Below are positions 1 to 62,034 of a DNA stretch of 64,000 nt, in pieces. Numbering within the stretch: the stretch's first letter is position 1; each line of letters begins with the position of its first letter. Origin of the DNA: a virus; IMG/VR virus record IMGVR_UViG_3300009085_000027, positions 1 through 64,000 of that record; one strand, 5' to 3'. The position numbers and the translations under genes are program-made. Under the pieces are notes generated by a model. The model saw only the letters and a list, made by a program, of their open reading frames with translations, was not told the DNA's origin and ran no database searches.

Positions 1-1
1 C

Positions 2-334: not shown

Positions 335-337
335 AAG

Positions 338-385: not shown

Positions 386-388
386 TGC

Positions 389-2197
389 CTACATCTCGTT
401 GGGTGGGATCTTCATCTCAAAGTCCATCATTGCGGCGTCCTCGGCCGCAGAGCTCTGGGCTTCGCTGTCCGACACCTCTCGGATCGGGGCGATGATATCC
501 GGCCTCTGGTGGTCGAACATCGACACCATCAGGCAGTATAGAATGCTGTGAAAGGTGTCATCCGGTATCCCACGGGGCTTGTCGTATTTGATCATCCGCA
601 TGGTCTCGGAGTACTCCGACTTGATGGACAGGATGTCATCGGCGTACGGCGACTTGTAAACCTCCCACGCCGGGAGCCTCACCTTCATGGCCTTGATGGC
701 ATTGAATAGATCGGACATCAGTGGGGTCCTGAACGCGATGAACCTGTGCAGAGCTCCTCTGTAGATGAGCTTTCGTGGGGCCCGGGGGGCGTACTGGAAC
801 TGATGCACCCGCTTGGGTCCGAAGGTGGAGATCAGTTTTTTGTTTTGCATGAACCCCATGCCGTAGTCGCAGCCCAGGTACTTGAGTCTAAACTTGCGGA
901 CCAGCCTAGAGATCTCTGCGACCTGCAGCTCGGGATCTGCGAGTGGACCATCGAAGCGCTGGGAGTACACGACCTGGAAACCAGAATCGCCACGGACATA
1001 GCCGCCGACGGTGAACAACGAGTACGACGCGGATTCCCCCGTTCCCCAGTCGACCCCGCCGTACAGGGTGTGGCTTGTTCCCAGAGCGGCTACGGCATCC
1101 TCGTCCATGTGGTAGTTCGAGTCGCAGGCCCTGATGACCTCGGCTCGGCTGATGGGTTTGACGCCGGAGTCGTAGCTGATGGCCAAGACCTCGTTCATGA
1201 ACTGGGCCATGTTGTAGCGTTCACGGGCCAGTAAGATCTCTTTCCATTTGTCTTGGCTCTTGAAGTACCAAGGCACCATCAGACGGCAGATTCTGAAGCC
1301 CTCGAACTCCGCTCCGGGGTTCATCTCAACCCATTGAGCCATGGGGTGTTCCGGGTTCAGCGGGTTGCCACAGCGGTCACAAACCGGACCGGTCTTGCCC
1401 AGGTTGTTGGGTCCCAGGATGTTCCAGTGCCAGGTCGATGGCTTGTTCGGTGTACCGTGGTGTTCGCACGGGATGCACCACTCCGACTGGGTCGAGGCTT
1501 TGGACCAGTAGTGCTCGATGGTGTTGTCGAACGACTTGGGTGTGCCGCTGTAGACGTAGACCGGGTTTTGTCTGTGTGAGGCAGTCTCCTCAATGACCGG
1601 CATGGTCTCCTGGAGCAAGTCCTGGATCTCATCGGCAAAGATCGCGTTCACGGAAAGACCACGGATACGGTCTGCGTTGAGGAAGGCGTATCGCAGATAT
1701 ATCTTCGACCTGTTGACGAACACCTTCTCCAGGATGTTCATCGTCAGTTCCTTGTGGGTCAGGGACTTGACCAGTGGGCTGATGTCGATGATGTCGTGGA
1801 GTCTGGCGCTGCTGAACACCTTGGTTTGCATCGCGGATGGCGAGACGAACAAGGACTCGAAGCCGGGGTTCATCCCGCAGTTGGCCAGGATCTTGTTACC
1901 GACGGTGGTGGACTTCTCGGTTTGGCGGCTGGTGAGTAGGAGCTTCCTCGGGCTTTTGGAGTCGTAGATGCGGCGCAGGTATCTGCGCTCCTCGAAGTCC
2001 ATCTTCTTGATAACACCGCGGTCGCCGTCTTTGATTCGGACGAAGTGTTCGACCCACGTAGACGGGGTCATCTTGACACGGTGGTGGCGTCTTACAGTAG
2101 TCTTCTGGGCGAAGGGATCATCGACATGGGCGCCCTGAATCGGGTCACCCTCGAAGTCTTCGGGATCAATGCCAACACCCTTTACTCTGGACTCCAT
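389..2197 (-). CDS. terminase large subunit (lambda gpA-like)
   Basis: Walker A-like SRQTEKSTT, Walker B IFADEIQD, coupling motif SGTP, Zn motif CEHH..CDRC, RNase H-like nuclease GVDWG...DDTFHS. Confidence 0.9.
   Translation of the reverse strand: MESRVKGVGIDPEDFEGDPIQGAHVDDPFAQKTTVRRHHRVKMTPSTWVEHFVRIKDGDRGVIKKMDFEERRYLRRIYDSKSPRKLLLTSRQTEKSTTVGNKILANCGMNPGFESLFVSPSAMQTKVFSSARLHDIIDISPLVKSLTHKELTMNILEKVFVNRSKIYLRYAFLNADRIRGLSVNAIFADEIQDLLQETMPVIEETASHRQNPVYVYSGTPKSFDNTIEHYWSKASTQSEWCIPCEHHGTPNKPSTWHWNILGPNNLGKTGPVCDRCGNPLNPEHPMAQWVEMNPGAEFEGFRICRLMVPWYFKSQDKWKEILLARERYNMAQFMNEVLAISYDSGVKPISRAEVIRACDSNYHMDEDAVAALGTSHTLYGGVDWGTGESASYSLFTVGGYVRGDSGFQVVYSQRFDGPLADPELQVAEISRLVRKFRLKYLGCDYGMGFMQNKKLISTFGPKRVHQFQYAPRAPRKLIYRGALHRFIAFRTPLMSDLFNAIKAMKVRLPAWEVYKSPYADDILSIKSEYSETMRMIKYDKPRGIPDDTFHSILYCLMVSMFDHQRPDIIAPIREVSDSEAQSSAAEDAAMMDFEMKIPPNEM
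2183..2195 (+). promoter_or_regulatory. -10 element of putative leaderless promoter
   Basis: TACTCT (2183-2188), 7 nt before ATG 2196. Confidence 0.45.
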
Positions 2198-2474
2198 GAG
2201 TGGGAACCTGCTCCGCTTCCTCGGTGATTTGGTTCACGAGACCAGGCGAGACGAGTCGGGGAACCTCTGGTTTCGGTTCCGAATGGGACTGACCCCAGAT
2301 CTGAAGAAGAACCTACGCGACTACGTCAAGGCCCACAACGCTTACTACGGTGGGTCGTTTCGCATCGGGTTCAACGGCCCATTCAAGATGCGGCTGGGCC
2401 CCGTTCGATCTCGGAAAAGAAACGCTCGACCAAAGGCCAAGGATCGGGACCAGCCCCAAGACCGTAAACGATAA
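2196..2474 (+). CDS. small basic hypothetical protein, antisense to the packaging operon
   Basis: MSGNLLRFLGD...; GC3-rich codons; fills the gap between minus-strand genes; leaderless -10 upstream. Confidence 0.5.
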   Translation: MSGNLLRFLGDLVHETRRDESGNLWFRFRMGLTPDLKKNLRDYVKAHNAYYGGSFRIGFNGPFKMRLGPVRSRKRNARPKAKDRDQPQDRKR

Positions 2475-2769
2475 TGCAGAAGCTCTTGAGCTCCGAGACG
2501 TAGTTGGCGCGTACCTTGGTGGTGTCGAAGCAAGCCTGGATGGCATGCTCCAGGCGATCAGGCATGTGGTAGGACTCTTTCCAGTCCTTGGCGTCCTTGG
2601 CCGGAAAGAAGTGGAACACCATCGCGGCGTCATCCACGCGGATGCCGTACTCGACGAGGTAATCCGCCGTGTCCTTGGCCAGTGGTTCTGGGATGTGTGT
2701 GCTCAACGACGAGCACGACACGTCCTGGAGGTTTGCGGACTTCAGATCATCCTGGTTTGTGTTCGTCAT
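2383..2769 (-). CDS. hypothetical protein
   Basis: 128 aa, SD GAGGAG upstream, in operon. Confidence 0.65.
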   Translation of the reverse strand: MTNTNQDDLKSANLQDVSCSSLSTHIPEPLAKDTADYLVEYGIRVDDAAMVFHFFPAKDAKDWKESYHMPDRLEHAIQACFDTTKVRANYVSELKSFCIIVYGLGAGPDPWPLVERFFSEIERGPAAS

Positions 2770-3694
2770 TGGGCTCCTCTACGGTTTCCCCCTCGGTCTC
2801 TACAACGCTGGGGAGTGCTTTGATGTCGACAGCCTTGAGGCCTGGGATGTCGTGTACGGATAGGACCTTCTCGGAGTCGTAGGATACCTCAATCCGGCGG
2901 AGCTCTTCGAGAAGTTCTGCACTGCTGCCCCGGTGCTTGGCGAGCTCCTCATCGGCTCCACGCATGATCTGAAAGGCGTTGAGTGCGGACTGTGCCCGAC
3001 CCAGACCAGGTCTCTGCAGGATTACGGCTTCCAGGAACATGCGGAACGCCATGTCACGTGCCGTGGCATAGTGGATGACTGGGCTCAGTGAGTCCGTGCT
3101 TCGGTCCACCACGGCCAGACTCAGAGCCGCACCCGCAGCACTGCGCGGAGCCATCAGCGAGGTCTGGTAGTCGTCGGTGGTGTACCCCGCCATCCACTTG
3201 GTGAAGACGTCCTTCCACTCCGCGTTGTTCATCGCGGAGTAGTCCCAGTAGTAATGGGCGTAGAGCCGGACCACCCGCGGATTCATCACTGCCTCTGGCA
3301 GGGAGAAGCGCTGTTGAAGGCGTCTCGCTATGGCCTGTGGGTTCAGTGGTCCGATCAGAAAGGCTTCCAGGGTCCGACGAATCTGAGGCTCGTGAACGAT
3401 GTCCGTGGCACTGCGGACGTACTCATCGTTCGACCACATGTCTGTGATCTCCCAGCGACTCAGGAACTTCGCCGTCACCGCGTTGAACGGCTGGTTGCTG
3501 GGATCATACCCCACGGGGAACTGCATCCTGCGCTGCTCCTCCAGGATGGACTTGATCAGACGATCGAGGTCCTTTCTGTCCTGTGGGAGTGGGAATAACA
3601 GATCATCCAGACGAGCAATGACCTCGTCGGCCTTCAGAGACCGACGAGACAGCAAGTAGTAGATGTATCGCTTCGCCGGGTATCTCAGCATCAA
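2747..3694 (-). CDS. hypothetical protein (terminase small subunit candidate by position only)
   Basis: 315 aa helical ORF overlapping both neighbours, two genes upstream of terminase. Confidence 0.6.
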   Translation of the reverse strand: MMLRYPAKRYIYYLLSRRSLKADEVIARLDDLLFPLPQDRKDLDRLIKSILEEQRRMQFPVGYDPSNQPFNAVTAKFLSRWEITDMWSNDEYVRSATDIVHEPQIRRTLEAFLIGPLNPQAIARRLQQRFSLPEAVMNPRVVRLYAHYYWDYSAMNNAEWKDVFTKWMAGYTTDDYQTSLMAPRSAAGAALSLAVVDRSTDSLSPVIHYATARDMAFRMFLEAVILQRPGLGRAQSALNAFQIMRGADEELAKHRGSSAELLEELRRIEVSYDSEKVLSVHDIPGLKAVDIKALPSVVETEGETVEEPNDEHKPG

Positions 3695-5763
3695 GAGCTC
3701 GCTGTGGTCTCCGCATCCGGATCCCGCAGCGCAAGCGACCTGAGTCCCTGAACCGTCTCGTCCAGTGCGCGAACCCCGCGGGCTGCGGCGAACTCCGGGA
3801 TCTCATTGAGACCGAGTCGCGAAGCCAGAAGGAGCTCACACAGCATGGAGAGGCACTGTTCAATGTAGGGGAGTCGGCTGATGTACATCCTAATGTTTTC
3901 CGAGTTGATGAAGCCGAGGCTGAGCACAGCATCGACAGTCATCGCGTTGGGGAAAACACTGGCTTCCTTCACGAGGTTCTGGCGCAGAGCCATCACCTCC
4001 GCGCTGCGGGCGGAAGCCAACTTTCGTGTGCTTTGGATTAGATCTTTGGCCAGCCTGACATCACTGACCCCAGAGATTTTGATGCTGCCGTTCAATGCCG
4101 CGGAGAGGCGGTTGTGGGCAGTCTTCGAGTCCAGCCCCGCGGAGCACAGGACCAACATGGCGTCGTCGAGGTCGAGTCGAGTACCCGATGCCGCGGCGAG
4201 CTTCGGCAGGTTGTGGTAGCGGAACTCGTAGGTGTCGTAGCTGTCGGAGAACACCGTGATGCTGGACCCAGCGACGGCCGCAGCGGTCTTATCCAGACCG
4301 TCCAGGGACCGAACCAGGGGCGTAGCGATCTCGGTATCCAGGCTCAGGAACTTCACGCTTGGCGACACCATGATGTCCCCACCCAGGGCCTTCATGCCTT
4401 GGACTCCAGGGACGATGCGGATGCGCCCTTCCTCACCGGAAAGGGTGTGGACCAGCCAGGAGTCCCCGCCGTCCATCCCGGCTTCCTTGCCCTTGATGGC
4501 GAGAGGCGCAGTGGCTTCGATGCCGCCCTGACCGGAGACGTAGAACACCCCAGTGCCCCGTGGGGGCGACGCCGGGAGGTCAACCCCTGTGGCGGTCATG
4601 GAACCAACGATCTGGTCCTGAATCATGGCGGCGGCACCATTGGTGAACACCGCGATGGGGCTGCGGGTGCCATCCAGGTCGAGTAGGCCAGGGATAACCC
4701 ACCCGGTCATCTCTTTGCCCTGCACGGTACGGACCTTGTAGATGCCGGGCTTTTCCACGATCTCCCAGTTCGAGACATCGGGGTCCGCAGCAGCGGTACC
4801 AGACCCAGTCAGAGTGACAGTGCCTTCGGTGTCCACCTTCTGGGTCACCTCGGGTCCGGCCTGCTTCAGGAACTCCTTGCGGGACATGTACTGTACCGGG
4901 GCACTATCCGTGACCCCGTAGTACGCCACTCGACTCGATGTCTTCACCCAGTACTGCGCCCGGGACTCATCGAAGCCGAACTGGAACACACTGGGGCGGG
5001 CTTGGCTGATGGCAACATCGCAGAGACCAGAAGCGGACTTCACCGCTGTGTCCTGGGCCTCGCTGAGAAGACGCAAGGCTCCGAGCATCGCGGTGTTTTC
5101 AGCCGAGGCCTTCACCAGACCTGGAGTACTGTGCAGGGTCTTCGCCACCTCTTCGATGTCCTGACCCCGGACTGTGGGCAGTGCGGCCTCCAGGAGCTCG
5201 AAGCTCAGCTTCATCCCAGGACCCTGAATGTGGGTCACAGCCCCGGCTGTGCCGCCACCCATGCCCTGGGAGATGCCGGCACCGAAGTCATTGTCGCTGC
5301 GTCCCGGCGGATAGAACATGTTGTACAACGTGGTGTCGCCCCAATCCTCCGTGATCATCTCGAAGGTCTCGGGACGGAACAGAATGGACCTCAAGCGATG
5401 GGCATTGAGCGGTACCATCTTGCCAGTGCCCGACATCATCAAGTCCATCGGCATGAGCAGGTGGTTCTTGATGATGACGGGGACCAAGGCTTTCTTGGCC
5501 GATCCACCAACCCGCGTCGCGCTCAGCGCGCTGTCGGTAGCCGAGGTGATGACAACGACGCCCAGGGCGTAGCCCTGCTCCTTGTCGACCTTCAGGAACA
5601 TCACCTCTGGGGTGTATTCCGACACTTCAGGGACCAAGCGGTATAGCTCGGTCAGAACCTGTCGTGTCCAGGTCTGGGGGTCTTCGTCGAGATGCACCGC
5701 AGCCGTCTTCGGCGTGGAGAAGACCAGTTCGGGCTCGTACTCGAAAATGTCCATGTCGCTCAT
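3691..5763 (-). CDS. putative head-associated protein with repeated K-x-A motifs
   Basis: 690 aa; KTAA, KSAS, KQAG, KTAA, KLAA, KLAS, KEAS; in structural operon. Confidence 0.6.
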   Translation of the reverse strand: MSDMDIFEYEPELVFSTPKTAAVHLDEDPQTWTRQVLTELYRLVPEVSEYTPEVMFLKVDKEQGYALGVVVITSATDSALSATRVGGSAKKALVPVIIKNHLLMPMDLMMSGTGKMVPLNAHRLRSILFRPETFEMITEDWGDTTLYNMFYPPGRSDNDFGAGISQGMGGGTAGAVTHIQGPGMKLSFELLEAALPTVRGQDIEEVAKTLHSTPGLVKASAENTAMLGALRLLSEAQDTAVKSASGLCDVAISQARPSVFQFGFDESRAQYWVKTSSRVAYYGVTDSAPVQYMSRKEFLKQAGPEVTQKVDTEGTVTLTGSGTAAADPDVSNWEIVEKPGIYKVRTVQGKEMTGWVIPGLLDLDGTRSPIAVFTNGAAAMIQDQIVGSMTATGVDLPASPPRGTGVFYVSGQGGIEATAPLAIKGKEAGMDGGDSWLVHTLSGEEGRIRIVPGVQGMKALGGDIMVSPSVKFLSLDTEIATPLVRSLDGLDKTAAAVAGSSITVFSDSYDTYEFRYHNLPKLAAASGTRLDLDDAMLVLCSAGLDSKTAHNRLSAALNGSIKISGVSDVRLAKDLIQSTRKLASARSAEVMALRQNLVKEASVFPNAMTVDAVLSLGFINSENIRMYISRLPYIEQCLSMLCELLLASRLGLNEIPEFAAARGVRALDETVQGLRSLALRDPDAETTASS

Positions 5764-5778
5764 GGTATCTCACCCCAT

Positions 5779-6930
5779 CTATTCGAGGAACACCTTGGTG
5801 GAAAGCATCTGAGTCAGAAGCGCAATCTGGGACGGGGACAGCACGGCTGTTCCAATCGGGGGGCCTACCCCACCTGGGGGAAGGACAATCATGGGCTGGC
5901 TGAGCAAGGAAACCAGCGCAGGTCCCAGTACCGCGGATTGGGCCGCAGCCCGGCTCCCCAGCCTCACTGCGGCACCCCCGAGTGTGGCCGTGCCACTTGC
6001 TATGTGCTCGAGGCTGCCGCCGGCGGTGAGGCTTGTACTGCCGCCCACGGTGGTGCTGTGGTCCCCACCGACTTCCAGAGTGTCAGATCCCTGAACCTCC
6101 GTGGACCGGCTACCCGTGATGGTCTCGATGCGATCCCCATTGAGACCCACCTTGAGGGTGTAGACTGCCCCAGAGACCGACCCAGTGTCCCGGTCGATGC
6201 CCTGGGGTGCTACTGTGACCTCCCAAGCCGACTTGTCTGAGCCAGGCTCCGCAACGGGCAAGTACCTGACCTGGACTGTGGCCTTGGTGTCCTGGGCATA
6301 CTCCAGGAGATCCAAAGTCCACGTCGCCGGCGCCTTCCCCGAGGGGTCGGACTCAGACCGAGCCACGGTCCAGCTCAGATCCCCTCCAAAGGACTGCATC
6401 TCGTAGTTCTCGCAGAAGTCCTTGATGTAGTTGAGAACCGGGATGTAGAGGCGCTGGGACAGCGCAGTAGATCCAATCTGAACGATGCCACCCCGACGCA
6501 GGATGACGAAGTTCTCGTCCCGAGTCGTGAGTCCGACGTCTCCGGGATTCAACTCTGGACGCCTGGACCGGAACCCTACATCAGTGGGTGAGCCCTGGGG
6601 GTTGTCTGTGGTCTGGGACCGAGCGGCTTGATCATCCGGCGTGATCTCCACCGAGGGCAGACCCAGATACCCCATGACGAATGGCGGGGTGTTGTCACTG
6701 GGCCAACCCAACAAACAGATCGCCCCAACCTCGGGGAGATGATGAATCCCCTCGCCGTTGGCGTAGTGGTGGTACTGAGCCATGCACTGAATGTCAGTGA
6801 CGGTCTTGGCGCTGTGCCGGGTCTCTACCGTAACAGTCCAGGTCTTTCGATTGACGTCAGTGATCACGGCCTCCTCCAACCTGAAGAAGGAGTACCGGTT
6901 GTGTGAGGGTCCGCCTGGGGTCCTAGCCAT
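5779..6930 (-). CDS. baseplate central spike (gp5/gpV/VgrG-like)
   Basis: N-terminal OB-fold signature LPEVGAICLLGW; C-terminal beta-helix repeats TITGSRSTEVQGSDTLEVGGDHSTTVGGSTSLTAGG. Confidence 0.75.
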   Translation of the reverse strand: MARTPGGPSHNRYSFFRLEEAVITDVNRKTWTVTVETRHSAKTVTDIQCMAQYHHYANGEGIHHLPEVGAICLLGWPSDNTPPFVMGYLGLPSVEITPDDQAARSQTTDNPQGSPTDVGFRSRRPELNPGDVGLTTRDENFVILRRGGIVQIGSTALSQRLYIPVLNYIKDFCENYEMQSFGGDLSWTVARSESDPSGKAPATWTLDLLEYAQDTKATVQVRYLPVAEPGSDKSAWEVTVAPQGIDRDTGSVSGAVYTLKVGLNGDRIETITGSRSTEVQGSDTLEVGGDHSTTVGGSTSLTAGGSLEHIASGTATLGGAAVRLGSRAAAQSAVLGPALVSLLSQPMIVLPPGGVGPPIGTAVLSPSQIALLTQMLSTKVFLE

Positions 6931-9900
6931 GAGGCTTGTCCTGTGCCGTGCCGTAAGCTCTACCCGCTGCGACGCCGATAGCTAGTCCAGGGATCGGGTG
7001 TCGGCCACCAGGTGTCGACGTATGTCCATGCTGAATGGCGGTGAGCACACTCTGTGTGATTCGCTCACCCTGGAGACGCCCCATCCAGTCTGGCTGACTC
7101 CGCAAGGGGATCATACTGGCGGGGATCAAGTGGGACTCGTACTCAATAGGCTTCTTACCCTTCAGAACCGTCCTATTGATCTCATCCAAAACTGGCTTCG
7201 TCACGAAGTCACCCCGGACGTAACTATCATGGGCCCCGGGATCTTGCACCCGAACCACACTCGTCGCTGTGCGAACCGCGAGCTCGGCGTGCCGACGTAG
7301 AACACCCTCCCTGCCATAGATCCCACCAATACGATCCACCATGTGGGATTGCACGGCGTCAAGACCCTTCGTGCTCAACAGGTCGTGGATGTTGGGCTCT
7401 CCATGGGTGAGCACTTCACCCTTGGAGAAGGAATACCCAGGCTTGACGTGATCCAGAGTCCTCTGCCTCGACACCAAGGGGTTCTTCTTCTTGTCGATGT
7501 AGATGTTCCAGGTCCCCTGTCGGGTTTTCTCCACCGAGGAGACCACCCCAGTCGACGGAGCCACAGCTGCGTCCTCGCGACTGCGCTTCGAAGCAGCGAA
7601 GAGACGATGGACATCACTGAACTCGTCCATGCCTGTACCCTTGGTGCTGACGATACCGCCACCGTGGGTCTGCCGAAGCATTAGCTGGGCAGCGCGCTCA
7701 CCCAAAGCCTGTGCCGCGATGATTCCGACGTTCTCCCCCATGTGATAGTCGCCACCACTGGGATGCACCCCCATGCACTTGGAGCAGACCCCGTGCGGCA
7801 TGCGGCACTTCAGCGGTGACCTCACCAGGATGCGATCGACCTTTGCCTTCTCGGCGTGGGCCAAGAGGTCTGGTGTAACGACGGTCCCTGCCGGGACTTC
7901 ACGAGCCCCCAGCTTCAATGGCGCAGCCAGGTGGCGGTCCACGACGTCCTTGTTCTTGATCGGCATCAACATGCCTTGCGGCGTGCCGCAATCAGCCCCG
8001 GTGATGGGTTGATCAATATTGGCTTGCACCAAGAGCTTGGACATGTACCCGGGCTCGCGAACCGAGTCGGTCTTCTGGATTAGGGCACGACGAGCTCCGG
8101 CAGCCTGGAGGAAGTATCCGCCCAGGTCGATGCCCTCGGCAAAGGACTTCGTGATTGGCACCTTCGAGGGGCGACCCAGGTGGTCCTCAACAAGCATGGG
8201 GGCCATCACGAGGCCCTGGTACTGCTCACGCTTGGCTTTGATACCGCTCACCGCCATGTCGCTGACGTTGGTGGGGTGATTGGCGAAGTGGGTGGAGTAG
8301 GTGTCGTGCAGCTTCCTGGTCGCGTCGAGCCAGTGCTGGGTCACCTCATCGGTCTTCCCCTGGGCCATGAGGGGGTTCACCTTCTTCTGTGCAGCCGCAA
8401 CGATTTGGTCGCGCTTGTCCCTCAGTGGCTCGAGGTCCTTGAGTGTCACGGTGTGACCCGACTCGTACGCCATTTGGAACCCCAGACGGCTGAGATTGTC
8501 GGCGAGCTCCACGAAGTGCTTGGGCTGGGACTTCGCTGTATCGTGAAGGATCTCGGCCTGGAACTTCTTGTCGAATGGCGCCTTCAGGTCTGTCAGGATC
8601 CGGGTCCGGTACTTCTCCGGGACCACAGCAGCCACACGGGCTCGTCCCAGAGTGGTGTCCCCAACGCCCTGGATATGGATCGTCTCATTGAGCTGGACTC
8701 GGCTCTCTTTGAACGCCTTCTCCGCCTCATCCTTGGTCTTGAAGGCCTTGCCCTTGGCAGCCCCACGAGGGACGGACATGCGGTACAGCGCCAGGGCCGA
8801 TTCGTTGGAAGGGGCGTAGAGCACGTCACCGGAACTCTCCGAAATGATTCGCTGTGACGGAACGATCCTCCTGGTCTCCTCCACTGCAGCGTGGGTCAAA
8901 GGGACCATCAGGGCAACGGTGTCGCCATCGATGTCAGCATTCAGTGGCGGCAGCACCAGGGGGCTGAGCTTCACCGCGGGGTCGTCGGTGAGCTTCACGT
9001 TCTGCCCCACCAACCCGTACTGGTGGAGCACAGGATCTCGCTTCATCAGGAGTGGTCGATTCTTGATCTCCTGCTCCAAAGCCTTGATAGCGAGTGGCGC
9101 CTTCTGCGACACCATGATCTGTGCCTTGTCACCAGGCACACCCGAACGAATCAGACGGCTGACTATGAAAGGCCGGTAGAGCTCAGCAGCAATCTTCTTG
9201 GGCACCCCGACTTCATCCACACCAAGGTCGGGGTCCACCGTGATGGTGGCCCGAGACGTGTAGTCCTGCTTCTTCGCTATGATCTTGTCCTGGAAGAAGC
9301 CGTCCTTGGGCTGCTCTCCGCTGAGCATGTGGAGAATCCCGGGTAGCTTCTTGCTCCGGTCCTCGCGAGTACCACGCATGTCGAGGTCGAGCGCCTTCTT
9401 CCCCTTCGGAGTCGTACCAAACAGGTTCCGAAGCTCCTGATACAACCCGGCCTGAGCATCGAGCGTGGCGTTGAACGGGATCTTCTCCCCATGCTTTAGC
9501 GACTCATTGGTCACACCAAGTCGGCGGTACAGGGCGTTGAGTGGGTTGTTGTTGATGGTGCCGTCCGGCTTCGTCGTCTGTGGACGGAAGATCGGCGGTA
9601 TCACGGGGACATTCTGGATGGTCCAGGCGTCTGCTGGTTTGACCCCGAGCTCCTTTAGGGTGCGCAGCGCGTGGTACTTGAAGTGGGCCTTCTCCAGCGC
9701 AGCTTCCTTGATCTTCGGATCCTTGAGCGCATCCTTGGCGTCCTTCAGCTCCTTGTCGACATTGATCTTGGACAAAGCCTCGCGGAAACCTCTGCCGCCG
9801 TATTGGCCACCGGGGAGCTTCTTCTTCCCCTCGATGATGTCCGAGATGTCGGCTTCCTGGATGCCGAGGACTCGAGAGATGGCTCTGGCGTGGATGGGGT

Positions 9901-12900
9901 TGGGCATCGGCTCATGGAGACGGATATGACCCCAGTGGGTTCCACCTTCACTTCCGCCCGTGATGTGTGGGTCGAAGAGTCCGCCAGGCTCGGGGCGGTC
10001 GTCCTTGCCACGAAGTGTACGGGTCGGTCGCTTGATTTCCCCTCGGCTCAGGGCGAGGGTCTCGGCATCAGTCCGCGGAATGATCCGAACGGTGCCTCCC
10101 TCGTTCTTCACGGTCGTGCCCATCGCTGTGAGCATGGCCTCGAACTTCTTGTAGACGAACGGGATCTGGGGCTTGGGTAGAACGGCGGCGCCGTTGGTCA
10201 GAGCGGCCCAGACCGCATGGGCCTGGGACTGGTCCGACTTCAGGGTCTGCATTTCCTTGAGGTTGTCGTGAAGACCAGAGGCTAGAGCCGCATAGATCCC
10301 CAACGAGCCCAAGGACTGAGCTCCGTTGTGCCCACCACCACGAGGGATCTGGGTGTTGGCATCGTAGTGGAGCTTCGGCGTTCCCAGTGCTGGGAAACTC
10401 GGTCCGCCGCTGCGGACGTGGGTCTTCTTATCGATCTGGTGTTCGAGCTGGAACACGTAGTGGGGACCCACAGTGATGTCCCCGAGCTTCCTCCCCGTCT
10501 TGGGGTCGTAGAGAGCTTCTGTGTCCTTCAACCCATGGGACTTGAGCTCGCCCTGCAGCTTCTTCAGGTAGTCGACTCCGCCCTGGAAGTTCTTGACCAC
10601 GTAGGCCTTGCCGGTCTTTTCCGCGATTCGACCCGCGGCTGTCTCCAGGATCTGCCCCGGGTTGATACGACCCGGCACTGACACAGGATTGATCAAGATC
10701 TCAACGTGTTTGGACTCAGCATCATGTGGCATCTCCTTGTCGGGAAGGATGCTGGCCACAATGCCCTTGGCACTGTGCCGGGTCGAGAGCTTCGACCCCA
10801 CCTGGATTGGCTCCAGGGTCTTGACGTGGACCACGATTTGTCCACCCACGTTCTGGGCACGGACCACCTCACCGACATGGTCAGAGTCCCAGACCATGGA
10901 GGCGTTGTCATAGCGCTCACGTAGACGCTTGCCGATCTTTGCAGCGGCTCGAGGGCCCGTGGCGATCAGCCTGGTATCTTCGTTGAGAGCCAGGACGAGT
11001 GGATCCCCGGGATGAACCTTGGTGCCGACCCTAACGATTCCGTCGTCGCCAATCTTGTTGAGCTTGTCCAGGCCAAATACGGTGCCCTTGCTGCGGATAA
11101 AGCTCTTCTTGTCGACGGTGTGGTTGTCGGTGACAAGCATGGAGGGCTTGTGCAAGTGCTCGGAGCTCAGCTTCTTCGCCGCAGACTCGGAGATTACGAT
11201 GCCGTCTTCGTGGTTTGAGCCGTTAGCGATGTAGGCTACGCGGAGGTTAGTGCCGAGAGCGAGCTTGCCGCCCTTGGTGTAGTTGTTGTCTGCGACGATC
11301 TCTCCGGCCTTGACCTTGTCTCCGGGCTTCACCAAAGGTGTGGAGTGGAGTTCACCCTTGCTGTGGTTGGTCGGGTAGTGGTCGTAGAGGTCGACGGTGT
11401 GAGTCCCAGACTTCCCACGGATGACCACCTCGCCGGGCTTCACTGATACCACGACTCCGGCTTCCGGTGACTTTCGGGCCAAGAACCCGGAACCGACGAG
11501 GTCTTCAAAGGTGCGTCCGGCCCCGGCCTCGACCTGGACCTTGGGTGCTTCCCTTCCCGTGATGCTGATGGCCTGCGCCATGTGTCGGGCGCTCATCGTG
11601 CTGCGTCCGGCGCTGTCATTCTGCATGAACGGGACGAGATTGGTCTCCACGGTGAAGACCTGTGTCGCCGACGGCATCACGTAGTGGGCATCACCCCAGG
11701 GTAGGTCGTCACGGATCTGGCCGTGACCATCACTCATCCTGGTGGTCTTCCCCCGCGGCGTTGGCTTGCCGCCCTTCCACACCACCTGGTCTGGGAGGAT
11801 CACGGAGCTCACCGATGCCCTTGCGGCATCGACGTCCTCGAGCTTACCGGTGCGCAGGTTGTAGAGCCGGATGTGCGGCTTTCGATCCTTGACGGTGACT
11901 CCGAAAGCCTTGTGGGTGTTGACCCCGGTGTTGGACTCCGGGGTGTAAACGGGGTCCAAGAATCCGAGGTGGCTGGGGTCCAGGGCGGTGTTGGACTTCG
12001 ACAGTGCGTGCTGATTCTGGATGCCACCAGGCCCGGTGATGGTCACCAGGTTGTTGTCGCTGATCATTGTCAGCGGGTTGGTCTGCTTACCAACGGAGGT
12101 CAGCGACGTGGTGAAGACGTGATTCAGAGGGCGCTGAATCAAGTCAGGCATGAAGACGTCACGAAGGACCTGACGATCTCCAGAGGCTAGACGGCGTTGA
12201 ACCGTGGGCTTGCTCAAAGCCTGCTGGACTCGGCGGGTGATTTCCGGGGAGGCCTGAGCGATACGCTCCATGAAGTGGTCCTTGGCCGACCACAACTCCT
12301 TGTACCGAAGGCTGTCGATTGGGTCGGGATCTTTGCGACCCGCACTGACATCCAAGAGCTTCTTCGACGCCTCAAAGAGAAGGGCGGCATTGACCTGAGA
12401 GGTACGCACCCCGAGATTGGCATGAGCCACTTCGGGGTCCAGCTTCGTGGACTCAAAAATCGCGTGGGTCTCATTGCGAAGATCTGCGGTGCTCGCCGGA
12501 GCTTCCTTCCGCCACACCTCGTAAAGGGACCGAAGGTTCTTGTCCACACTGGCCTTGGACTTCGAGGCGTGGAAGGTGGACTCACCCCAGGCCTTCTTCA
12601 TGGCCTCATCCGTCACACCCATTGTGCTGAGTACGGAGTAGAGCGGGATCTTGCGGGACCCCACCTTCATGTGGATGTACCCGGACTCATCGAGCTGTAC
12701 GTCGAAGCTCCTGCCTTTGGCGAGCTGGAACTGGGCTTCGTACTCCCCTGGCTTCTCCGTGGCCTTGACGTAAGCACCTGGACGAAGACGCCACTGGTTC
12801 GCGATGGACTTCTCCTGCCCACCCATGATGTAGGAGTAGTGCCTGGTGAGCTTGGGGATCTTAGCGATCAGGGCATTGGGACGAGACACCACCGTCTTGT

Positions 12901-13141
12901 TCTCTTTGGTGTCAACGACCTCGATGGTCCCCAGGACTGGTACAGCCCAGGACTTACCCTCCAGCCGGGCCTTGGCCTGACCCTTGATGTCATCCGTGCC
13001 CAGGTGATCATCTACAGTAAGTCCGCTTACGCGAACCTCGAATCGACCAGACCGATCTTTGATCGGAAAGGTCCCACTGATCTGTGTGAGGAGTTGTTCC
13101 TTGAGCTCCTCGAACTGGGCTTTTGGGTCGGAGGTGAGCAC
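6923..13141 (-). CDS. rpoBC: DNA-directed RNA polymerase, fused beta+beta' single polypeptide
   Basis: beta motifs QTNPL..GPGG, NHEDGIVISE, GSKLSTRHSAKG, NPVSVPGRINPGQILE; beta' motifs GLFDP, VPVIPPIFRP, KKQDYTSRATI, catalytic NADIDGD (8921-8941), bridge helix GARRAL..GYMSKLL, Zn site RSPLKC..CSKC, trigger loop AAQALGERAAQLMLRQTHGGG. Confidence 0.97.
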   Translation of the reverse strand: MLTSDPKAQFEELKEQLLTQISGTFPIKDRSGRFEVRVSGLTVDDHLGTDDIKGQAKARLEGKSWAVPVLGTIEVVDTKENKTVVSRPNALIAKIPKLTRHYSYIMGGQEKSIANQWRLRPGAYVKATEKPGEYEAQFQLAKGRSFDVQLDESGYIHMKVGSRKIPLYSVLSTMGVTDEAMKKAWGESTFHASKSKASVDKNLRSLYEVWRKEAPASTADLRNETHAIFESTKLDPEVAHANLGVRTSQVNAALLFEASKKLLDVSAGRKDPDPIDSLRYKELWSAKDHFMERIAQASPEITRRVQQALSKPTVQRRLASGDRQVLRDVFMPDLIQRPLNHVFTTSLTSVGKQTNPLTMISDNNLVTITGPGGIQNQHALSKSNTALDPSHLGFLDPVYTPESNTGVNTHKAFGVTVKDRKPHIRLYNLRTGKLEDVDAARASVSSVILPDQVVWKGGKPTPRGKTTRMSDGHGQIRDDLPWGDAHYVMPSATQVFTVETNLVPFMQNDSAGRSTMSARHMAQAISITGREAPKVQVEAGAGRTFEDLVGSGFLARKSPEAGVVVSVKPGEVVIRGKSGTHTVDLYDHYPTNHSKGELHSTPLVKPGDKVKAGEIVADNNYTKGGKLALGTNLRVAYIANGSNHEDGIVISESAAKKLSSEHLHKPSMLVTDNHTVDKKSFIRSKGTVFGLDKLNKIGDDGIVRVGTKVHPGDPLVLALNEDTRLIATGPRAAAKIGKRLRERYDNASMVWDSDHVGEVVRAQNVGGQIVVHVKTLEPIQVGSKLSTRHSAKGIVASILPDKEMPHDAESKHVEILINPVSVPGRINPGQILETAAGRIAEKTGKAYVVKNFQGGVDYLKKLQGELKSHGLKDTEALYDPKTGRKLGDITVGPHYVFQLEHQIDKKTHVRSGGPSFPALGTPKLHYDANTQIPRGGGHNGAQSLGSLGIYAALASGLHDNLKEMQTLKSDQSQAHAVWAALTNGAAVLPKPQIPFVYKKFEAMLTAMGTTVKNEGGTVRIIPRTDAETLALSRGEIKRPTRTLRGKDDRPEPGGLFDPHITGGSEGGTHWGHIRLHEPMPNPIHARAISRVLGIQEADISDIIEGKKKLPGGQYGGRGFREALSKINVDKELKDAKDALKDPKIKEAALEKAHFKYHALRTLKELGVKPADAWTIQNVPVIPPIFRPQTTKPDGTINNNPLNALYRRLGVTNESLKHGEKIPFNATLDAQAGLYQELRNLFGTTPKGKKALDLDMRGTREDRSKKLPGILHMLSGEQPKDGFFQDKIIAKKQDYTSRATITVDPDLGVDEVGVPKKIAAELYRPFIVSRLIRSGVPGDKAQIMVSQKAPLAIKALEQEIKNRPLLMKRDPVLHQYGLVGQNVKLTDDPAVKLSPLVLPPLNADIDGDTVALMVPLTHAAVEETRRIVPSQRIISESSGDVLYAPSNESALALYRMSVPRGAAKGKAFKTKDEAEKAFKESRVQLNETIHIQGVGDTTLGRARVAAVVPEKYRTRILTDLKAPFDKKFQAEILHDTAKSQPKHFVELADNLSRLGFQMAYESGHTVTLKDLEPLRDKRDQIVAAAQKKVNPLMAQGKTDEVTQHWLDATRKLHDTYSTHFANHPTNVSDMAVSGIKAKREQYQGLVMAPMLVEDHLGRPSKVPITKSFAEGIDLGGYFLQAAGARRALIQKTDSVREPGYMSKLLVQANIDQPITGADCGTPQGMLMPIKNKDVVDRHLAAPLKLGAREVPAGTVVTPDLLAHAEKAKVDRILVRSPLKCRMPHGVCSKCMGVHPSGGDYHMGENVGIIAAQALGERAAQLMLRQTHGGGIVSTKGTGMDEFSDVHRLFAASKRSREDAAVAPSTGVVSSVEKTRQGTWNIYIDKKKNPLVSRQRTLDHVKPGYSFSKGEVLTHGEPNIHDLLSTKGLDAVQSHMVDRIGGIYGREGVLRRHAELAVRTATSVVRVQDPGAHDSYVRGDFVTKPVLDEINRTVLKGKKPIEYESHLIPASMIPLRSQPDWMGRLQGERITQSVLTAIQHGHTSTPGGRHPIPGLAIGVAAGRAYGTAQDKPHG

Positions 13142-13177
13142 GGGTTGAGTTTACTCGCCTTGAAACGACAGGGTCAA
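13142..13177 (-). promoter_or_regulatory. sigma70-type leaderless promoter of the RNAP operon
   Basis: TTGACC (13177-13172), 18 nt, TAAACT (13153-13148), 6 nt, GTG start; no SD. Confidence 0.7.
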
Positions 13178-13194
13178 CGCGGGTCTCATCCATC

Positions 13195-13211
13195 CTATCA
13201 GATTGTGGAGG
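13195..13211 (+). promoter_or_regulatory. CTATCAG-N5-GGAGG motif (candidate phage promoter plus SD)
   Basis: Same arrangement at 23998 and 40649. Confidence 0.45.
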
Positions 13212-13216
13212 TATTC

Positions 13217-13345
13217 ATGTTAGATCCAGCCGAAGACAGCCTAAGCGACTATGAGTCGTCGCTGTCTGACGCCCTTTTCTGGGACATCGAAGACACCGGG
13301 GACAGTGACGATTCAGAGTCCGAGGACGAGAAAGACGGGGACTAG
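13217..13345 (+). CDS. 42-aa highly acidic peptide
   Basis: GGAGG SD 5 nt before ATG; 18 of 42 residues are D/E. Confidence 0.65.
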   Translation: MLDPAEDSLSDYESSLSDALFWDIEDTGDSDDSESEDEKDGD

Positions 13346-13348
13346 CCA

Positions 13349-13444
13349 GTGGCATCAATCTTGATTTGGAGTTTCGTGGGTGGGTTCCTTGCCGGTCTGC
13401 TGGACGGTTTCCGTGAGTCTGGGATCTGGAGTTTGTTCGGATGA
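13349..13444 (+). CDS. 31-aa hydrophobic peptide
   Basis: GTG start, MASILIWSFVGGFLAGLLDGFRESGIWSLFG; stop overlaps the next ATG (ATGA). Confidence 0.5.
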   Translation: MASILIWSFVGGFLAGLLDGFRESGIWSLFG

Positions 13445-13791
13445 AGTCCAAGGCATCCAGGGATCCGAGCGTTGAAATCAACACGCCGGAATGCCTGTGC
13501 TGTGCCGACCAACTGGAGCTACACGAGGAGTCCTTCGTCATGCTCCGTGGCGTTTGGATGATCTCTTCGGGGACGGGTCTACCAATCTTCGTATTGGACC
13601 CAGACACCGGGAACATCTGGGACAAGCTACCAAACGGTCAGACCGTGATCGTCACAGATTACTTTGGACCCACGAAGCACGCCCACAAGGAATGCGTCGA
13701 GCGCCTGATCGACGAGGAGCTCGATGACGGGGTCACAGACTCCGATGGTTTTGACGATGACTACGCCAACCTGGATACCGATCGGTACTGA
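13441..13791 (+). CDS. hypothetical Zn-finger protein with acidic tail
   Basis: CLCC...HKEC; D/E-rich C-terminus. Confidence 0.65.
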   Translation: MKSKASRDPSVEINTPECLCCADQLELHEESFVMLRGVWMISSGTGLPIFVLDPDTGNIWDKLPNGQTVIVTDYFGPTKHAHKECVERLIDEELDDGVTDSDGFDDDYANLDTDRY

Positions 13792-13793
13792 GA

Positions 13794-17569: not shown

Positions 17570-19432
17570 CTACCTCCGCGGCGGAAGTACCTCGGGTTGT
17601 GGCCGCATGTCCACTCCAGGCTGTGGGGGCTGTTGCGGGGGTTCGGGCTGCTGTTGCTCCGGCATCACGACCTGGGCCAACTCCGGTGACTCCACCCTGA
17701 GCTGGGCCATGTAGGCCTCGCGCTGCTCCGCTGGCATGGAAGAGACCCTGCGGGCCAGGGCTGCGGCGACGCTGTCCAGTGGATAGCCCCCGACCTGGTG
17801 CAGCCTCGAGCCCTGGGCCTCGGCAAAGGGGTCTTTGGACTTCGTGGTCTCAGCTGACATGGCCTTCTGTGCCGCGCCCTGGGCCTCGGCCTGGTACTTC
17901 GCTGCAACCAACTGGGCTTCGCCCTGGATGTCGGCCTGCAAGAGTTGCTGCGACCGCATAGCCTTGGACTTCAAGTCCACTTCTCTGGCCTGGAGATCGA
18001 CCTCGTCATCGATCTTGAGGTCGGCGTAAGACAGCAACGTAGCATCAGAGATCTTACTCATCTGACTGAGCTGAGCCATGTAGGCCTGGCGCTGGAGGTC
18101 ATCAGCCATGCGGAAAGGCTTGAACCGGCCATCTGGAACAGGCCAGTTCAGGAAAGCCCCCATGCGCTTCATCACCCAGTGCAACAGACGCTTGTGGCCA
18201 TGAACATTGCTGAGGAAGAAGTTCTCTAGCATCCGCATGCTCACCGAGGTCCCAGCGTAGTTGCCGTGGCCGAAGACCAGGTCGATGGGGAACCCCATAC
18301 CGACAGCGATCTGCTCAGACATCTGCTGAATCTCTGGCATCAGGAGAAGGCTTCGACCGTTCTCACCAATGGTCTGGTGGCCCACGGGGAACGGCAGAAT
18401 CCCGATGTAGGCCGGGTCCATTCTTTGCCTAGCGATCTCGCGACGGATGTGATCACGCCAGTCAGCTAGGTTGATCGTCGTGAAAGGGTCCGCCCCAGCC
18501 GTTGCGGGTTGGGGGAACAAGAAAGTCTGTGGCACGAGGTGCTGAAGCAGGATCGCTTCCTGGGCCTTCTTCATGACCTGGACGTAGAAGGCGTCCTTCA
18601 GCACGGGCATGATCAGTGGGATACCCCAACCACGATTCATCGTGCTCAGGCTGGGCCGGCGTAGGTGGAAGACCTCGTTGCGGTCGAACACCAAGCTGCG
18701 CTTTGTAGTCACGGCTTCGAGGAACACCTCTGGTGTCGTGGCTACGAGGTCCTTCCGTCCCATCATGACCTGGCTACGAAAGTCCGGGGACAGGTCCAAG
18801 CCGTAGTCCATCCGGCCGGTGGCCTCATTGTAGAAGATGTGGACGTACTCCGGGTTCCACCGGATCATATTGATCTCGGCGTACTTCGGGTAGTAATCAT
18901 CCCGGCTCTTCGCGAAGTCGGTCTGTCCGCACTTCGGGCACGTCAGCCAGAACTTGTGATTCACGTACCGCCAGTGTGGGCGGCTCATCACGGCGTCATG
19001 CTCGGCGTTGCAGAGCGCGCAGATCACCTTCTTGCGGAATGGGAAGCTCGGGCTGACGAAGGCATTGCCGTAGACGTGAAAGTCCAGGTTGATCTCGAAC
19101 TGGTGAACCCGGTAGTTCATCACTCCGAGAAGGAGCTCCTCCCACTTGTTCACCACGCCACGATCCTTGTGCTGAAGGATTAGGTCGGTGACTGGATACT
19201 CCGATGCCTTGGTGCAGATCGCGTTGATGATGCCGTGAGTCAGGTGATAGAACCTGCAGAACCCGAACAGGGCTTTGACTGTAGGTGGGGTGTAGGTACT
19301 GGCATGGTCGAAGAAGGGGTTGGCAAAGGGCTGATACCTTCGGCCCAAGATCTGTGACCGACTCGCCGTACCCTCGAACTGTGCGGATCGTGAAGCCCCA
19401 AAGGCTGCGCCACCACCACTAAAGAACGTCAT
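17570..19432 (-). CDS. portal protein with Zn-ribbon insertion
   Basis: Portal-like INAICTKASEYP, DFHVYGNAFV, FHLRRP..GWGIPLI; CALC..CPKC insert; Q/P-rich tail. Confidence 0.75.
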   Translation of the reverse strand: MTFFSGGGAAFGASRSAQFEGTASRSQILGRRYQPFANPFFDHASTYTPPTVKALFGFCRFYHLTHGIINAICTKASEYPVTDLILQHKDRGVVNKWEELLLGVMNYRVHQFEINLDFHVYGNAFVSPSFPFRKKVICALCNAEHDAVMSRPHWRYVNHKFWLTCPKCGQTDFAKSRDDYYPKYAEINMIRWNPEYVHIFYNEATGRMDYGLDLSPDFRSQVMMGRKDLVATTPEVFLEAVTTKRSLVFDRNEVFHLRRPSLSTMNRGWGIPLIMPVLKDAFYVQVMKKAQEAILLQHLVPQTFLFPQPATAGADPFTTINLADWRDHIRREIARQRMDPAYIGILPFPVGHQTIGENGRSLLLMPEIQQMSEQIAVGMGFPIDLVFGHGNYAGTSVSMRMLENFFLSNVHGHKRLLHWVMKRMGAFLNWPVPDGRFKPFRMADDLQRQAYMAQLSQMSKISDATLLSYADLKIDDEVDLQAREVDLKSKAMRSQQLLQADIQGEAQLVAAKYQAEAQGAAQKAMSAETTKSKDPFAEAQGSRLHQVGGYPLDSVAAALARRVSSMPAEQREAYMAQLRVESPELAQVVMPEQQQPEPPQQPPQPGVDMRPQPEVLPPRR

Positions 19433-20379
19433 GGTGCCTCGACACGGCGGCGACCGCCGAGAAGACGGTTGGCTCCGTGCTCAAAAGCCATGGACGACGC
19501 TATTTGTGGGATCACGGGTAGGCCGCTGGTGAGGGCACCCGCAGTAACACCGCTTCCCAGACCCACGAGCTTCTGCCTCATGCTGCGCCCGCCAGTAGCG
19601 GACTCGTCCCCACGGGCCAGGTCAGGGACTGACATAGCCACAGGAAGGCCGACGCCCAGCATAGCCCCGGTGCGTCCACCACTCATGATCTCACTACCCA
19701 TGGCGCGTAGAGTACGCCCTGGAGCCGTGGTGAGTCCACGGGCAACGCCAGGGACGCTCGTGATTCCGGCGGCGAGTGCAGCGTCGCCGTGCTGACCCGC
19801 AGACCTAGCGCTTGCGATCTGAGCCTCCAGGCTACTAGCTGCCGCTGGTGTCATGGTTTTGCTGGCCGCACGACGGCGAAGGAGGTCGATCTCCTTTTCA
19901 GCCGTAGCGGAGCTGCGCAACCCGATGTCTCCGGCACGGTCTGCATAAGCCCCGGTGAGTCCGTGAAGCTGCCGGGCACCAAAGTTCTTCACACTCCGGC
20001 CAATACTCTTGGCCGTAGCGCCTATGGCCTGCCCACCACTGAGGCTGGGATCTAGGAGTCGAGTGTCTTGATACCGTCTGCCCAGAAGACCGGCGCCTCC
20101 GCCGATAGCAGCCCCCCGAAGACCACCGCGAAGAGCCGCAGAGCTACCACTCTCACCTTCACCTCTCGTGGCGTAGCCATGAGCGGCGCCGACACCAGCG
20201 CCGAGTAAGGCAGTCCTGGTCGGGGATTCCGCTATGCTACGACCCAGGTTGCGGCCCAGGCCCATGAGACTCCCCGTAATGGGTGCTTGTCTAACCCCTT
20301 GGAGGGCACGGGACAGCACCCCAGTAGCCGCAGACTCCTTGATGATCTGACCCGCCACACGAAGGCTTGCTGTATCCAT
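19429..20379 (-). CDS. Gly/Ala-rich putative virion membrane-interacting protein
   Basis: Gly-zipper hydrophobic segments; N-terminal IKESAAT. Confidence 0.6.
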   Translation of the reverse strand: MDTASLRVAGQIIKESAATGVLSRALQGVRQAPITGSLMGLGRNLGRSIAESPTRTALLGAGVGAAHGYATRGEGESGSSAALRGGLRGAAIGGGAGLLGRRYQDTRLLDPSLSGGQAIGATAKSIGRSVKNFGARQLHGLTGAYADRAGDIGLRSSATAEKEIDLLRRRAASKTMTPAAASSLEAQIASARSAGQHGDAALAAGITSVPGVARGLTTAPGRTLRAMGSEIMSGGRTGAMLGVGLPVAMSVPDLARGDESATGGRSMRQKLVGLGSGVTAGALTSGLPVIPQIASSMAFEHGANRLLGGRRRVEAP

Positions 20380-21296: not shown

Positions 21297-21309
21297 GGTC
21301 TTATCCGGC

Positions 21310-22365: not shown

Positions 22366-22392
22366 GTGTCTTTCTCCTCAGTTTCGGTTGAC

Positions 22393-23955: not shown

Positions 23956-23992
23956 GACTCAAATCGTACTTCGCTGTGGGGAGTTGGGTCAA
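23956..23992 (-). promoter_or_regulatory. sigma70-type leaderless promoter of the portal/head operon
   Basis: TTGACC (23992-23987), 18 nt, TACGAT (23968-23963), 7 nt, ATG. Confidence 0.7.
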
Positions 23993-61310: not shown

Positions 61311-61312
61311 GG

Positions 61313-62010: not shown

Positions 62011-62034
62011 GGTCATGGCTGGGCGGGGCAGCCC

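Follow-up and report, generated by a model that had tools for sequence, protein, structure and literature searches.

A predicted single-chain beta-beta' RNA polymerase, encoded with a putative tail spike behind a conserved host-type promoter, as a candidate virion polymerase of uncultured phages

Phage RNA polymerases (RNAPs) that start the infection are known from N4, from phiKZ-like and from crAss-like phages, and each of these enzymes is very different. The late genes of N4 are read by the host sigma70 RNAP. They include the gene of the virion RNAP, which is injected and serves the early genes, whereas the middle genes depend on a second phage RNAP. Both the transport of a phage RNAP in the particle and the N4-like use of host RNAP for late genes are therefore known. 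The virion RNAP of N4 is a T7-like single-subunit enzyme of about 3500 amino acids (aa) (PMC13434306). In jumbo phages of the phiKZ/AR9 type, a cellular-type RNAP packed into the particle transcribes the early genes and a SNF2-type helicase gene is linked to the RNAP genes; these phages have two RNAP sets of four or five polypeptides each, use no sigma factor and are independent of the host RNAP (PMC7598289, PMC7824862). Here we analyze a 64,000-bp stretch of DNA (the window), the first 64 kb of the 73,934-bp viral contig IMGVR_UViG_3300009085_000027 of IMG/VR, in which an RNAP gene heads a minus-strand operon together with a putative tail spike gene and for which we propose the same logic as in N4. 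The contig has no terminal repeats and its completeness was rated 45% by CheckV. As its close relatives include two contigs rated 100% complete, G001 with 171,909 bp and G002 with 168,874 bp, the full genome of the window phage is probably about 170 kb in size. Public DNA runs containing window positions 5500-14500 are freshwater and sediment metagenomes.

The gene in question is the following:

6923..13141, minus strand: single-chain beta-beta' RNA polymerase, 2072 aa, GTG start (Pfam, PDB phmmer, catalytic motif)

The beta part comprises residues 1-1050 and the beta' part residues 1110-2040 (both approximate). Pfam Rpb2_6 (PF00562), the catalytic barrel region of beta (Rpb2 domain 6), matches residues 566-914 with an E-value of 5.9e-51, and the Rpb1 domains 2, 3 and 5 (PF00623, PF04983, PF04998) match across residues 1355-1969. 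Searching the PDB with phmmer revealed matches to bacterial beta' (1e-84) and beta (3e-64; Thermus beta chain 2.8e-64), with residues 335-857 aligned to bacterial beta and residues 1110-2034 aligned to beta' from about residue 170-180 on. The catalytic loop NGDIDGD at residues 1401-1407, with three aspartates of the NADFDGD/DxDGD type, is invariant across three orthologues. As judged from these matches, the 2072-aa open reading frame (ORF) is the complete catalytic core of a multisubunit (two-barrel) cellular-type RNAP with beta fused to beta'; both parts lie in one open frame and not on separate polypeptides assembled on an alpha dimer. The likeness to the N4 enzyme, which had been drawn in a preliminary description of this locus, does not hold with respect to the kind of enzyme, because the Pfam scan of the ORF returned only beta/beta' families and no match to the N4/T7-type RNA_pol family (PF00940). 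The complete relatives possess one RNAP gene each, and a genome-wide search of the relatives for a T7-type RNAP (PF00940) was empty, which is weak evidence by itself as the control genomes remained silent too. A query spanning the fusion junction was aligned in one piece to at least 150 protein clusters (50% identity), mostly of about 2000-2100 aa, and therefore the fused form is, by the breadth of these clusters, widespread and no peculiarity of this contig. Many homologues of the fused RNAP in the protein library have a length of 2400-3700 aa and match in two to four separate stretches, which suggests inteins or other insertions inside the enzyme of related phages. The sole return from a scan of genome contigs, a fragment of a Mycobacterium metagenome-assembled genome with 27% identity over the beta' part, is most likely an ordinary cellular rpoC and gives no evidence of a host.

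The RNAP gene is the first of five co-directional and tightly coupled genes on the minus strand, which are followed by the large terminase gene:

5779..6930, minus strand: putative gp5/VgrG-like central tail spike, 383 aa (Pfam, orthologue profile, Foldseek)
6923..6930, minus strand: overlap of RNAP stop and spike start, 8 nucleotides (nt), ATGGCTAG (ORF list, sequence)
3691..5763, minus strand: conserved 690-aa protein, the K-x-A protein of the preliminary description (conservation)
2747..3694, minus strand: conserved 315-aa protein, 4-nt overlap with the 690-aa gene (conservation)
2383..2769, minus strand: conserved 128-aa protein, last gene of the RNAP operon (conservation)
2196..2474, plus strand: conserved opposite-strand gene, about 92 aa, basic C-terminal tail (tblastn, guanine-plus-cytosine (GC) pattern)
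389..2197, minus strand: TerL, large terminase subunit (phrog_675, 5.6e-50; Pfam GpA_ATPase, PF05876, 1.1e-8; 28% identity to gp1 of phage Arash)

The ORF list and the sequence agree on the 8-nt overlap between the RNAP stop and the spike start, as it had been described. At this junction, nine of 11 relatives show a 1-nt stop/start overlap, one shows a 14-nt overlap and one a 1-nt gap, and the overlap kept in 10 of the 11 implies translational coupling of RNAP and spike. The second gene yielded sub-threshold Pfam matches to Phage_base_V (PF04717, 0.0081), Gp5_trimer_C and Gp5_C in the right order, the OB domain being visible only at this level below threshold. A profile of 12 orthologues matched the T4 gp5 beta-helix (E 2e-5) and other central spikes in the PDB with E-values up to 1e-3. 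The AlphaFold model is poor (pLDDT 51), and the top Foldseek rows, central spikes of contractile systems with a best E-value of 2e-3, are suggestive only. Taken together, these matches suggest that the 383-aa protein is a gp5/VgrG-like central spike. In one relative (locus L045) a 562-nt insertion (16198-16760) is located exactly between RNAP stop and spike start; its ORF is rich in Cys and basic residues, starts with an ATG that overlaps the RNAP stop like the spike ATG elsewhere, and may encode a homing endonuclease.

No convincing terminators were found inside the RNAP operon, which does include the 690-aa K-x-A protein as proposed, but the continuation towards terminase has to be dropped. 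The opposite-strand gene 2196..2474 is conserved (tblastn E 3e-17 in G002 and 3e-14 in G001), has a coding-type GC pattern (0.56/0.40/0.76) and parts the 128-aa gene from TerL, so that TerL forms a separate transcription unit. The ATGs of this gene and of TerL share one CATG (2195-2198), likewise in G001, and no promoter was identified for either of the two. The synteny of RNAP with structural genes, which had been named as a check, is kept in about 14 relatives with an RNAP identity of 53-69% to the window RNAP: the order is portal operon, three opposite-strand genes (a MoxR-type ATPase, a DUF2201 protein and a 479-aa protein), RNAP-spike-690-315-128, TerL. In two distant loci (L046 and L049, RNAP identity 29-31%) the neighbouring genes show no similarity to portal or helicase.

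Two operons of the window are headed by the same type of promoter, termed class A here:

13148..13177, minus strand: class A promoter of the RNAP operon, -35 box TTGACC at 13177-13172, 18-nt spacer, -10 box TAAACT at 13153-13148 (conserved boxes)
17570..23992, minus strand: portal operon (520, 351, 305, 316 and 620 aa) with the second class A promoter (homology, promoter)

The arrangement TTGACC-N18-TAAACT follows the rules for sigma70/sigmaA, i.e., a TTGACA-like -35 box, a spacer of 16-19 nt, a TAnnnT -10 box and conservation by position. There is no Shine-Dalgarno site before the RNAP gene, and because its GTG (13141) is reached 6 nt past the -10 box, the mRNA is predicted to be leaderless with its 5' end at the GTG; in all relatives the distance between -10 box and start codon is 5-6 nt. 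A comparison of the upstream regions of 14 distinct relatives revealed a -35 box conserved to 100%, a spacing of 18 nt in 14/14 and a -10 box conserved to 95%, whereas conservation falls to 53% in the spacer and to 55% in the six bases that precede the start codon. The portal operon starts with TTGACC (23992-23987), 18 nt, TACGAT (23968-23963) and, after 7 nt, an ATG at 23955. The leaderless TTGACC-N18-TAnnnT promoter reported to be common to both operons was thus found at both sites, and the full -35/-10 pattern occurs exactly twice per genome in G000, G001 and G002, at RNAP and at the head of the portal operon. As boxes and spacing are conserved in 14 relatives and the pattern stands at two orthologous places per genome, this is more than chance, and TTGACC-N18-TAnnCT upstream of RNAP is, on the strength of its conservation, probably a functional promoter of the sigma70/sigmaA type. 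It is the sole sigma70-like match on both strands of window 1-14000. Together with the spike coupling, the promoter type shared with the portal operon is in line with the earlier assumption that the RNAP gene is expressed as a unit with a virion gene. A minus-strand ORF upstream of RNAP (13215..13625) was rejected as a gene, since it is unconserved and has no coding-type GC pattern; the true upstream neighbour is a divergent plus-strand unit with its ATG at 13217.

Further leaderless class A sites consist of a TAGACT-like -10 box that is separated from the start codon by 6-7 nt and in many cases extended by TGn. G002 has 18 of these sites, G001 has 14 and G000 has 6; most of them precede large structural genes, and almost all are on the strand that encodes the RNAP. 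In Actinobacteria and Deinococcus-Thermus, leaderless GTG starts are frequent, and the leaderless sigmaA-type promoters with TAGACT-like -10 boxes may be a hint to the type of host.

Evidence from particles is provided by Salmonella phage Arash (OQ632216; PMC10585845). Arash and the Vibrio phages D69, D148 and D181 share the RNAP lineage, with 27-30% identity over 72-97% of the protein (30% to the window RNAP for Arash), and have, like the window phage, beta fused to the N-terminal part of beta'. In Arash the C-terminal part of beta' is a separate gene (gp216), whereas everything lies in one chain in the window phage. Arash further shares portal, TerL, DNA polymerase, the structural protein gp13 and the SNF2 helicase (39% identity) with the window and has two annotated sigma factors; its host (Salmonella) and its GC content differ from those of the window phage. 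The window portal, the 620-aa protein at 19432..17570 on the minus strand and last in its operon, is 27% identical to Arash gp204 (E 2e-76). The Arash RNAP gene sits among particle genes, downstream of the portal gene and separated from it by one small ORF, and portal and RNAP genes adjoin in Arash, Vibrio phage D69 and locus L044. In the published particle proteome, the RNAP Gp206 has the top spectral count with 3516 spectra and 128 unique peptides, and the particles also contain Gp216 (RNAP), the sigma factor Gp10 and the helicase Gp217 (PMC10585845). From the published table (PMC10585845) we calculated the number of unique peptides per residue:

Arash Gp206 (RNAP): 0.084
Arash Gp216 (RNAP, C-terminal part of beta'): 0.066
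Arash Gp217 (helicase): 0.08
Arash portal: 0.055
Arash capsid: 0.098
Arash ribonucleotide reductase: 0.014 (11 per 764 aa)

In these entries, the peptide density of RNAP and helicase is similar to that of portal and capsid and well above that of ribonucleotide reductase.

A second type of site, class B, was found before non-structural genes and consists of CCTATCAG or CCTATAAG followed by a Shine-Dalgarno site (GGAGG):

13195..13219, plus strand: class B motif CTATCAG at 13195-13201, then GGAGG and ATG at 13217 (same motif at 23998 and 40649)

The motif is long and sharply conserved and stands about 21-27 nt before the ATG, Shine-Dalgarno site included. TATAAG is present in 11 of the 98 upstream regions of G002 compared with 0.77 expected, and 14 intergenic class B sites of this genome share GCCTATAAGCAaGGTGaAGGAG; the form in G001 and G000 is CCTATCAGcaGGTGGAGG. 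Three class B sites (13195, 23998 and 40649) head all plus-strand units of the window, which include the MoxR/DUF2201 genes, two small ORFs, a helicase, a DNA polymerase homologue and a small gene. Small ORFs, the MoxR ATPase and the DUF2201 protein form the unit behind the site at 13195, and at both divergent junctions (13.2 kb and 24.0 kb) a class A and a class B promoter are arranged back to back. In Arash the class B core recurs as tgGTATAAGtaaNgtGTA in about 30 intergenic copies; these have a Shine-Dalgarno site behind them, and almost all share the strand of the non-structural genes. As the TATAAG..GTG core is common to phages of very different hosts, its reader would be the phages' own machinery and not a host factor, which argues for class B being read by phage-encoded machinery. 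Counted over the Arash genome (L030, L032, L033, L002, L031), GTATAAG occurs 40 times compared with 18 expected, with 36 copies on the minus strand; the accessible part of the Arash paper (PMC10585845) contains no mention of the tgGTATAAGtaaNgtGTA/GTATAAG motif. The first frame behind the class B site at 13195 is a very acidic 42-aa ORF (13217-13345) with a good Shine-Dalgarno site, for which no homologue was detected in G001 or G002. The MoxR-type AAA ATPase and the DUF2201 protein, the latter with metallopeptidase-like and VWA-like domains, cover 13794-16150 on the plus strand and are kept in all close relatives.

A candidate for the factor that directs the phage enzyme is the sigma factor Gp10 of Arash. 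Pfam (PF04542 and PF04545) gave no sigma match in G000, G001 and G002, a miss due to sensitivity, as tblastn with Arash gp10 later identified homologues in G001 (37944-38774, E 3e-21) and G002 (85194-86003, E 2e-15), only one in each complete relative. Arash Gp10 has a match to Sigma70 region 3 (9e-9) and a weak one to region 2, whereas region 4 is not detectable in Gp10 or in its homologues from G001 and G002. A promoter that depends on a -35 box therefore probably needs another sigma factor, e.g., that of the host, and a sigma without region 4 would suit class B, which has no -35 box, and not the TTGACC-dependent class A. In G001 a class B site immediately precedes the sigma gene, and in G002 the gene is part of a class B unit; both copies follow class A genes on the structural strand. 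Another gene shared with Arash is the following:

58879..60345, minus strand: SNF2-family helicase, 39% identity to Arash Gp217, inside the class A (structural) block

A homologue of this helicase is absent throughout the otherwise collinear G001 and G002.

From these data we infer which polymerase reads which promoter class, at what time, and what is packed into the particle. We regard it as somewhat probable, if only just, that the phage follows an N4-like programme in which the RNAP is made late, packed into the particle and starts the next infection. The host holoenzyme would read class A, i.e., the RNAP operon, the portal operon and, from -10-only or extended -10 sites, other large structural genes. 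Since class A promoters precede both RNAP and particle genes, we propose that the RNAP is made together with particle proteins if these promoters are host-read. Packaging into the virion would follow, probably together with the Gp10-like sigma known from the complete relatives, and after injection the RNAP would read class B (CCTATCAG or CCTATAAG, then GGAGG) before non-structural and replication operons. This would be the division of labour known from N4, but with a cellular-type enzyme. Compared with the preliminary description, the operon, the coupling and the conserved host-type promoter stand, whereas an N4-like kind of enzyme and a terminase gene within the operon do not; that description also took no account of the Gp10-like sigma encoded by the complete relatives.

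Several points weigh against a packaged RNAP. No function is known for three of the five operon genes, so that it is the spike alone that marks this as a virion operon. The RNAP lacks the N-terminal K-x-A-A motif that is present on the 690-aa and 520-aa proteins, as had been cautioned before, and the motif itself is not enriched. A Gp10-like sigma was not found by tblastn on the window's contig, a fragment rated 45% complete, and no RNA runs are listed among the public runs containing window 5500-14500. The Arash RNAP is only about 30% identical and its gene is not preceded by a leaderless TTGACC-N18-TAnnCT promoter. Furthermore, the Arash proteome comprises 116 proteins including metabolic enzymes, and the authors warn of a carry-over of abundant enzymes (PMC10585845). 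Sigma70-like boxes could also be read by a phage core bound to host sigma, and a phage RNAP gene expressed early, as in T7, would show a host-type promoter as well.

T7 itself places a host-type promoter directly before its own polymerase gene. In a T7-like cascade without packaging, host RNAP would read class A from the start of infection and make the phage RNAP together with some particle proteins as a by-product; the new RNAP and the phage sigma would then read class B as middle genes, and the particle would carry nothing. The strong and conserved host-type promoter directly before the RNAP gene fits this scheme, and only two full -35/-10 promoters per genome are what would be expected for few entry points of the host enzyme; the Arash authors also allow for carry-over of abundant enzymes into the particle preparation (PMC10585845). 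Nevertheless we consider such a cascade unlikely, though a serious contender. A purely early RNAP gene would drag particle proteins along, as it is coupled to the spike and the portal operon has the same promoter, and class B precedes many small ORFs and replication genes, which are normally the first to be expressed. In the relatives class B sites immediately precede the sigma gene, and therefore a start from class B needs sigma that is already present. In addition, the unique peptides per residue of Arash RNAP, sigma and helicase match those of structural proteins and not those of ribonucleotide reductase.

It is also conceivable that "host-type" describes the sigma factor and not the polymerase. 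The programme would then need no host core, just as phiKZ-like phages make no use of host RNAP, and class A would be read by the phage core with host sigmaA or with a hidden phage factor. The window enzyme aligns to beta' from about residue 170-180 on and so includes the sigma-binding clamp region, relatives such as Arash pair their RNAP with sigma70-family factors, and as Pfam missed the Gp10-like gene, more divergent factors could be hidden as well. However, the one Gp10-like sigma per complete relative has no detectable region 4 for the -35 box, and class A obeys the general rules of sigma70 (a -35 box at 18 nt, or TGn), in contrast to class B, which is a phage motif found across hosts; we therefore judge this programme decidedly improbable. 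The boxes might finally be promoter-like by chance, with RNAP belonging to a long transcript begun elsewhere, and window 1-14000 indeed gives only one sigma70-like match compared with 3.3 expected from shuffled sequence. But across 14 distinct relatives neither the -35 box nor the exact spacing varies, in contrast to the drifting flanks, the full pattern is limited to two orthologous positions per genome in three genomes, and the region upstream of RNAP is the divergent plus-strand unit, so that no minus-strand gene is there to supply a transcript. Chance is thus an extremely improbable explanation.

Within the N4-like programme with a packaged RNAP, one may speculate on the route of delivery. 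In type VI secretion, the gene of an effector lies next to that of its carrier VgrG, and in the window RNAP is coupled to a VgrG-like spike, in relatives usually by a one-base overlap. By analogy the RNAP might be delivered with the tail tip and not merely travel as a passenger of the head, an idea to which we give little credence. Equally doubtful are its corollaries, that the RNAP would enter in a few copies whose number corresponds to the trimeric spike, reaching the cell before the DNA end or together with it, and that the beta-beta' fusion would let one unfolded chain cross the tail and refold to a core without alpha.

Among the other proteins of these operons, the 690-aa protein contains KTAA at residues 19-22, with K19 and A21 invariant in 12 orthologues. 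In the first 45 residues K.A[AGS] was found in four of 60 proteins compared with 2.6 expected, which is no enrichment. The ESM Atlas, a PDB profile search, Foldseek (PDB and viral) and a VIA-wide search gave no convincing match for the 690-aa protein; its assignment as a chymotrypsin-like protease was rejected, as the rows were weak and of low probability and the region lacks an invariant His or Ser. The 315-aa protein has an ESM feature match to DUF2280 clusters of 0.88, under the 0.9 level, a weak lead towards a small terminase subunit. PHROGs and Pfam gave no match for most of the large minus-strand proteins of the window. One of its proteins, with 1324 aa (49405-53379), resembles Arash gp13 in its N-terminal 250 residues or so (24% identity, E 6e-13), and gp13 was detected in the particles of Arash (PMC10585845). 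Past 61.3 kb the contig is no longer syntenic with G001 or G002 and all similarity is lost. This end (window 61300-64000 and contig 60001-73934) encodes an Amidase_2 protein (62035-62730), a patatin-like phospholipase (62724-63671, 1.5e-26) and a tandem pair of paralogues of about 1200 aa each (63815-67393 and 67411-71022) with similar N-termini.

With regard to described RNAPs, the mReC phages (Weinheimer and Aylward 2020, PMC7481178) are likewise uncultured tailed phages from metagenomes and IMG/VR with clear homologues of cellular beta/beta'. In the survey RNAP serves as a phylogenetic marker; neither "virion" nor "packaged" occurs in its text, and fusion is mentioned for crAssphage only (PMC7481178). 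Furthermore, its capsid and terminase families are PF07068 and PF03237 (PMC7481178), whereas the window TerL matches PF05876 instead. Apart from this survey (PMC7481178) and the Arash genome paper (PMC10585845), we found no literature on this RNAP family, and reviews on jumbo-phage RNAPs are confined to the enzymes of phiKZ/AR9, which are split and sigma-free (PMC7598289, PMC7824862). Unlike these, the window lineage has one RNAP gene that encodes a single chain; relatives possess a Gp10-like sigma, and the proposed late genes carry host-type promoters. In contrast to N4 with its second RNAP, one RNAP gene is all that the complete relatives contain. Single-polypeptide two-barrel RNAPs that are delivered by the particle and whose genes lie among tail or particle genes are known from the crAss-like phage phi14:2 (bioRxiv 10.1101/2020.03.07.982082) and from Thermus phage P23-45, where the enzyme is fused to the tape measure protein (bioRxiv 10.1101/2022.12.01.518664). 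Both enzymes are too divergent for sequence models of cellular beta/beta', whereas the window RNAP matches Rpb2_6 at 6e-51.

A cultured relative, Salmonella phage Arash, makes the model accessible to standard bench experiments. If the model is true, the phage would possess a minimal, self-contained transcription machine of the bacterial type that needs neither alpha nor omega, and its genome would be cleanly split into host-read leaderless late genes and phage-read early genes. Compared with the enzymes of N4, phiKZ-like and crAss-like phages, the candidate presented here is close to the cellular enzyme, a single chain of about 2070 aa, probably accompanied by a small sigma, from a very large uncultured family. 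The combination of one cellular-type chain, a small sigma and leaderless host-type promoters on proposed late genes, including that of the polymerase itself, has not been described for these systems.

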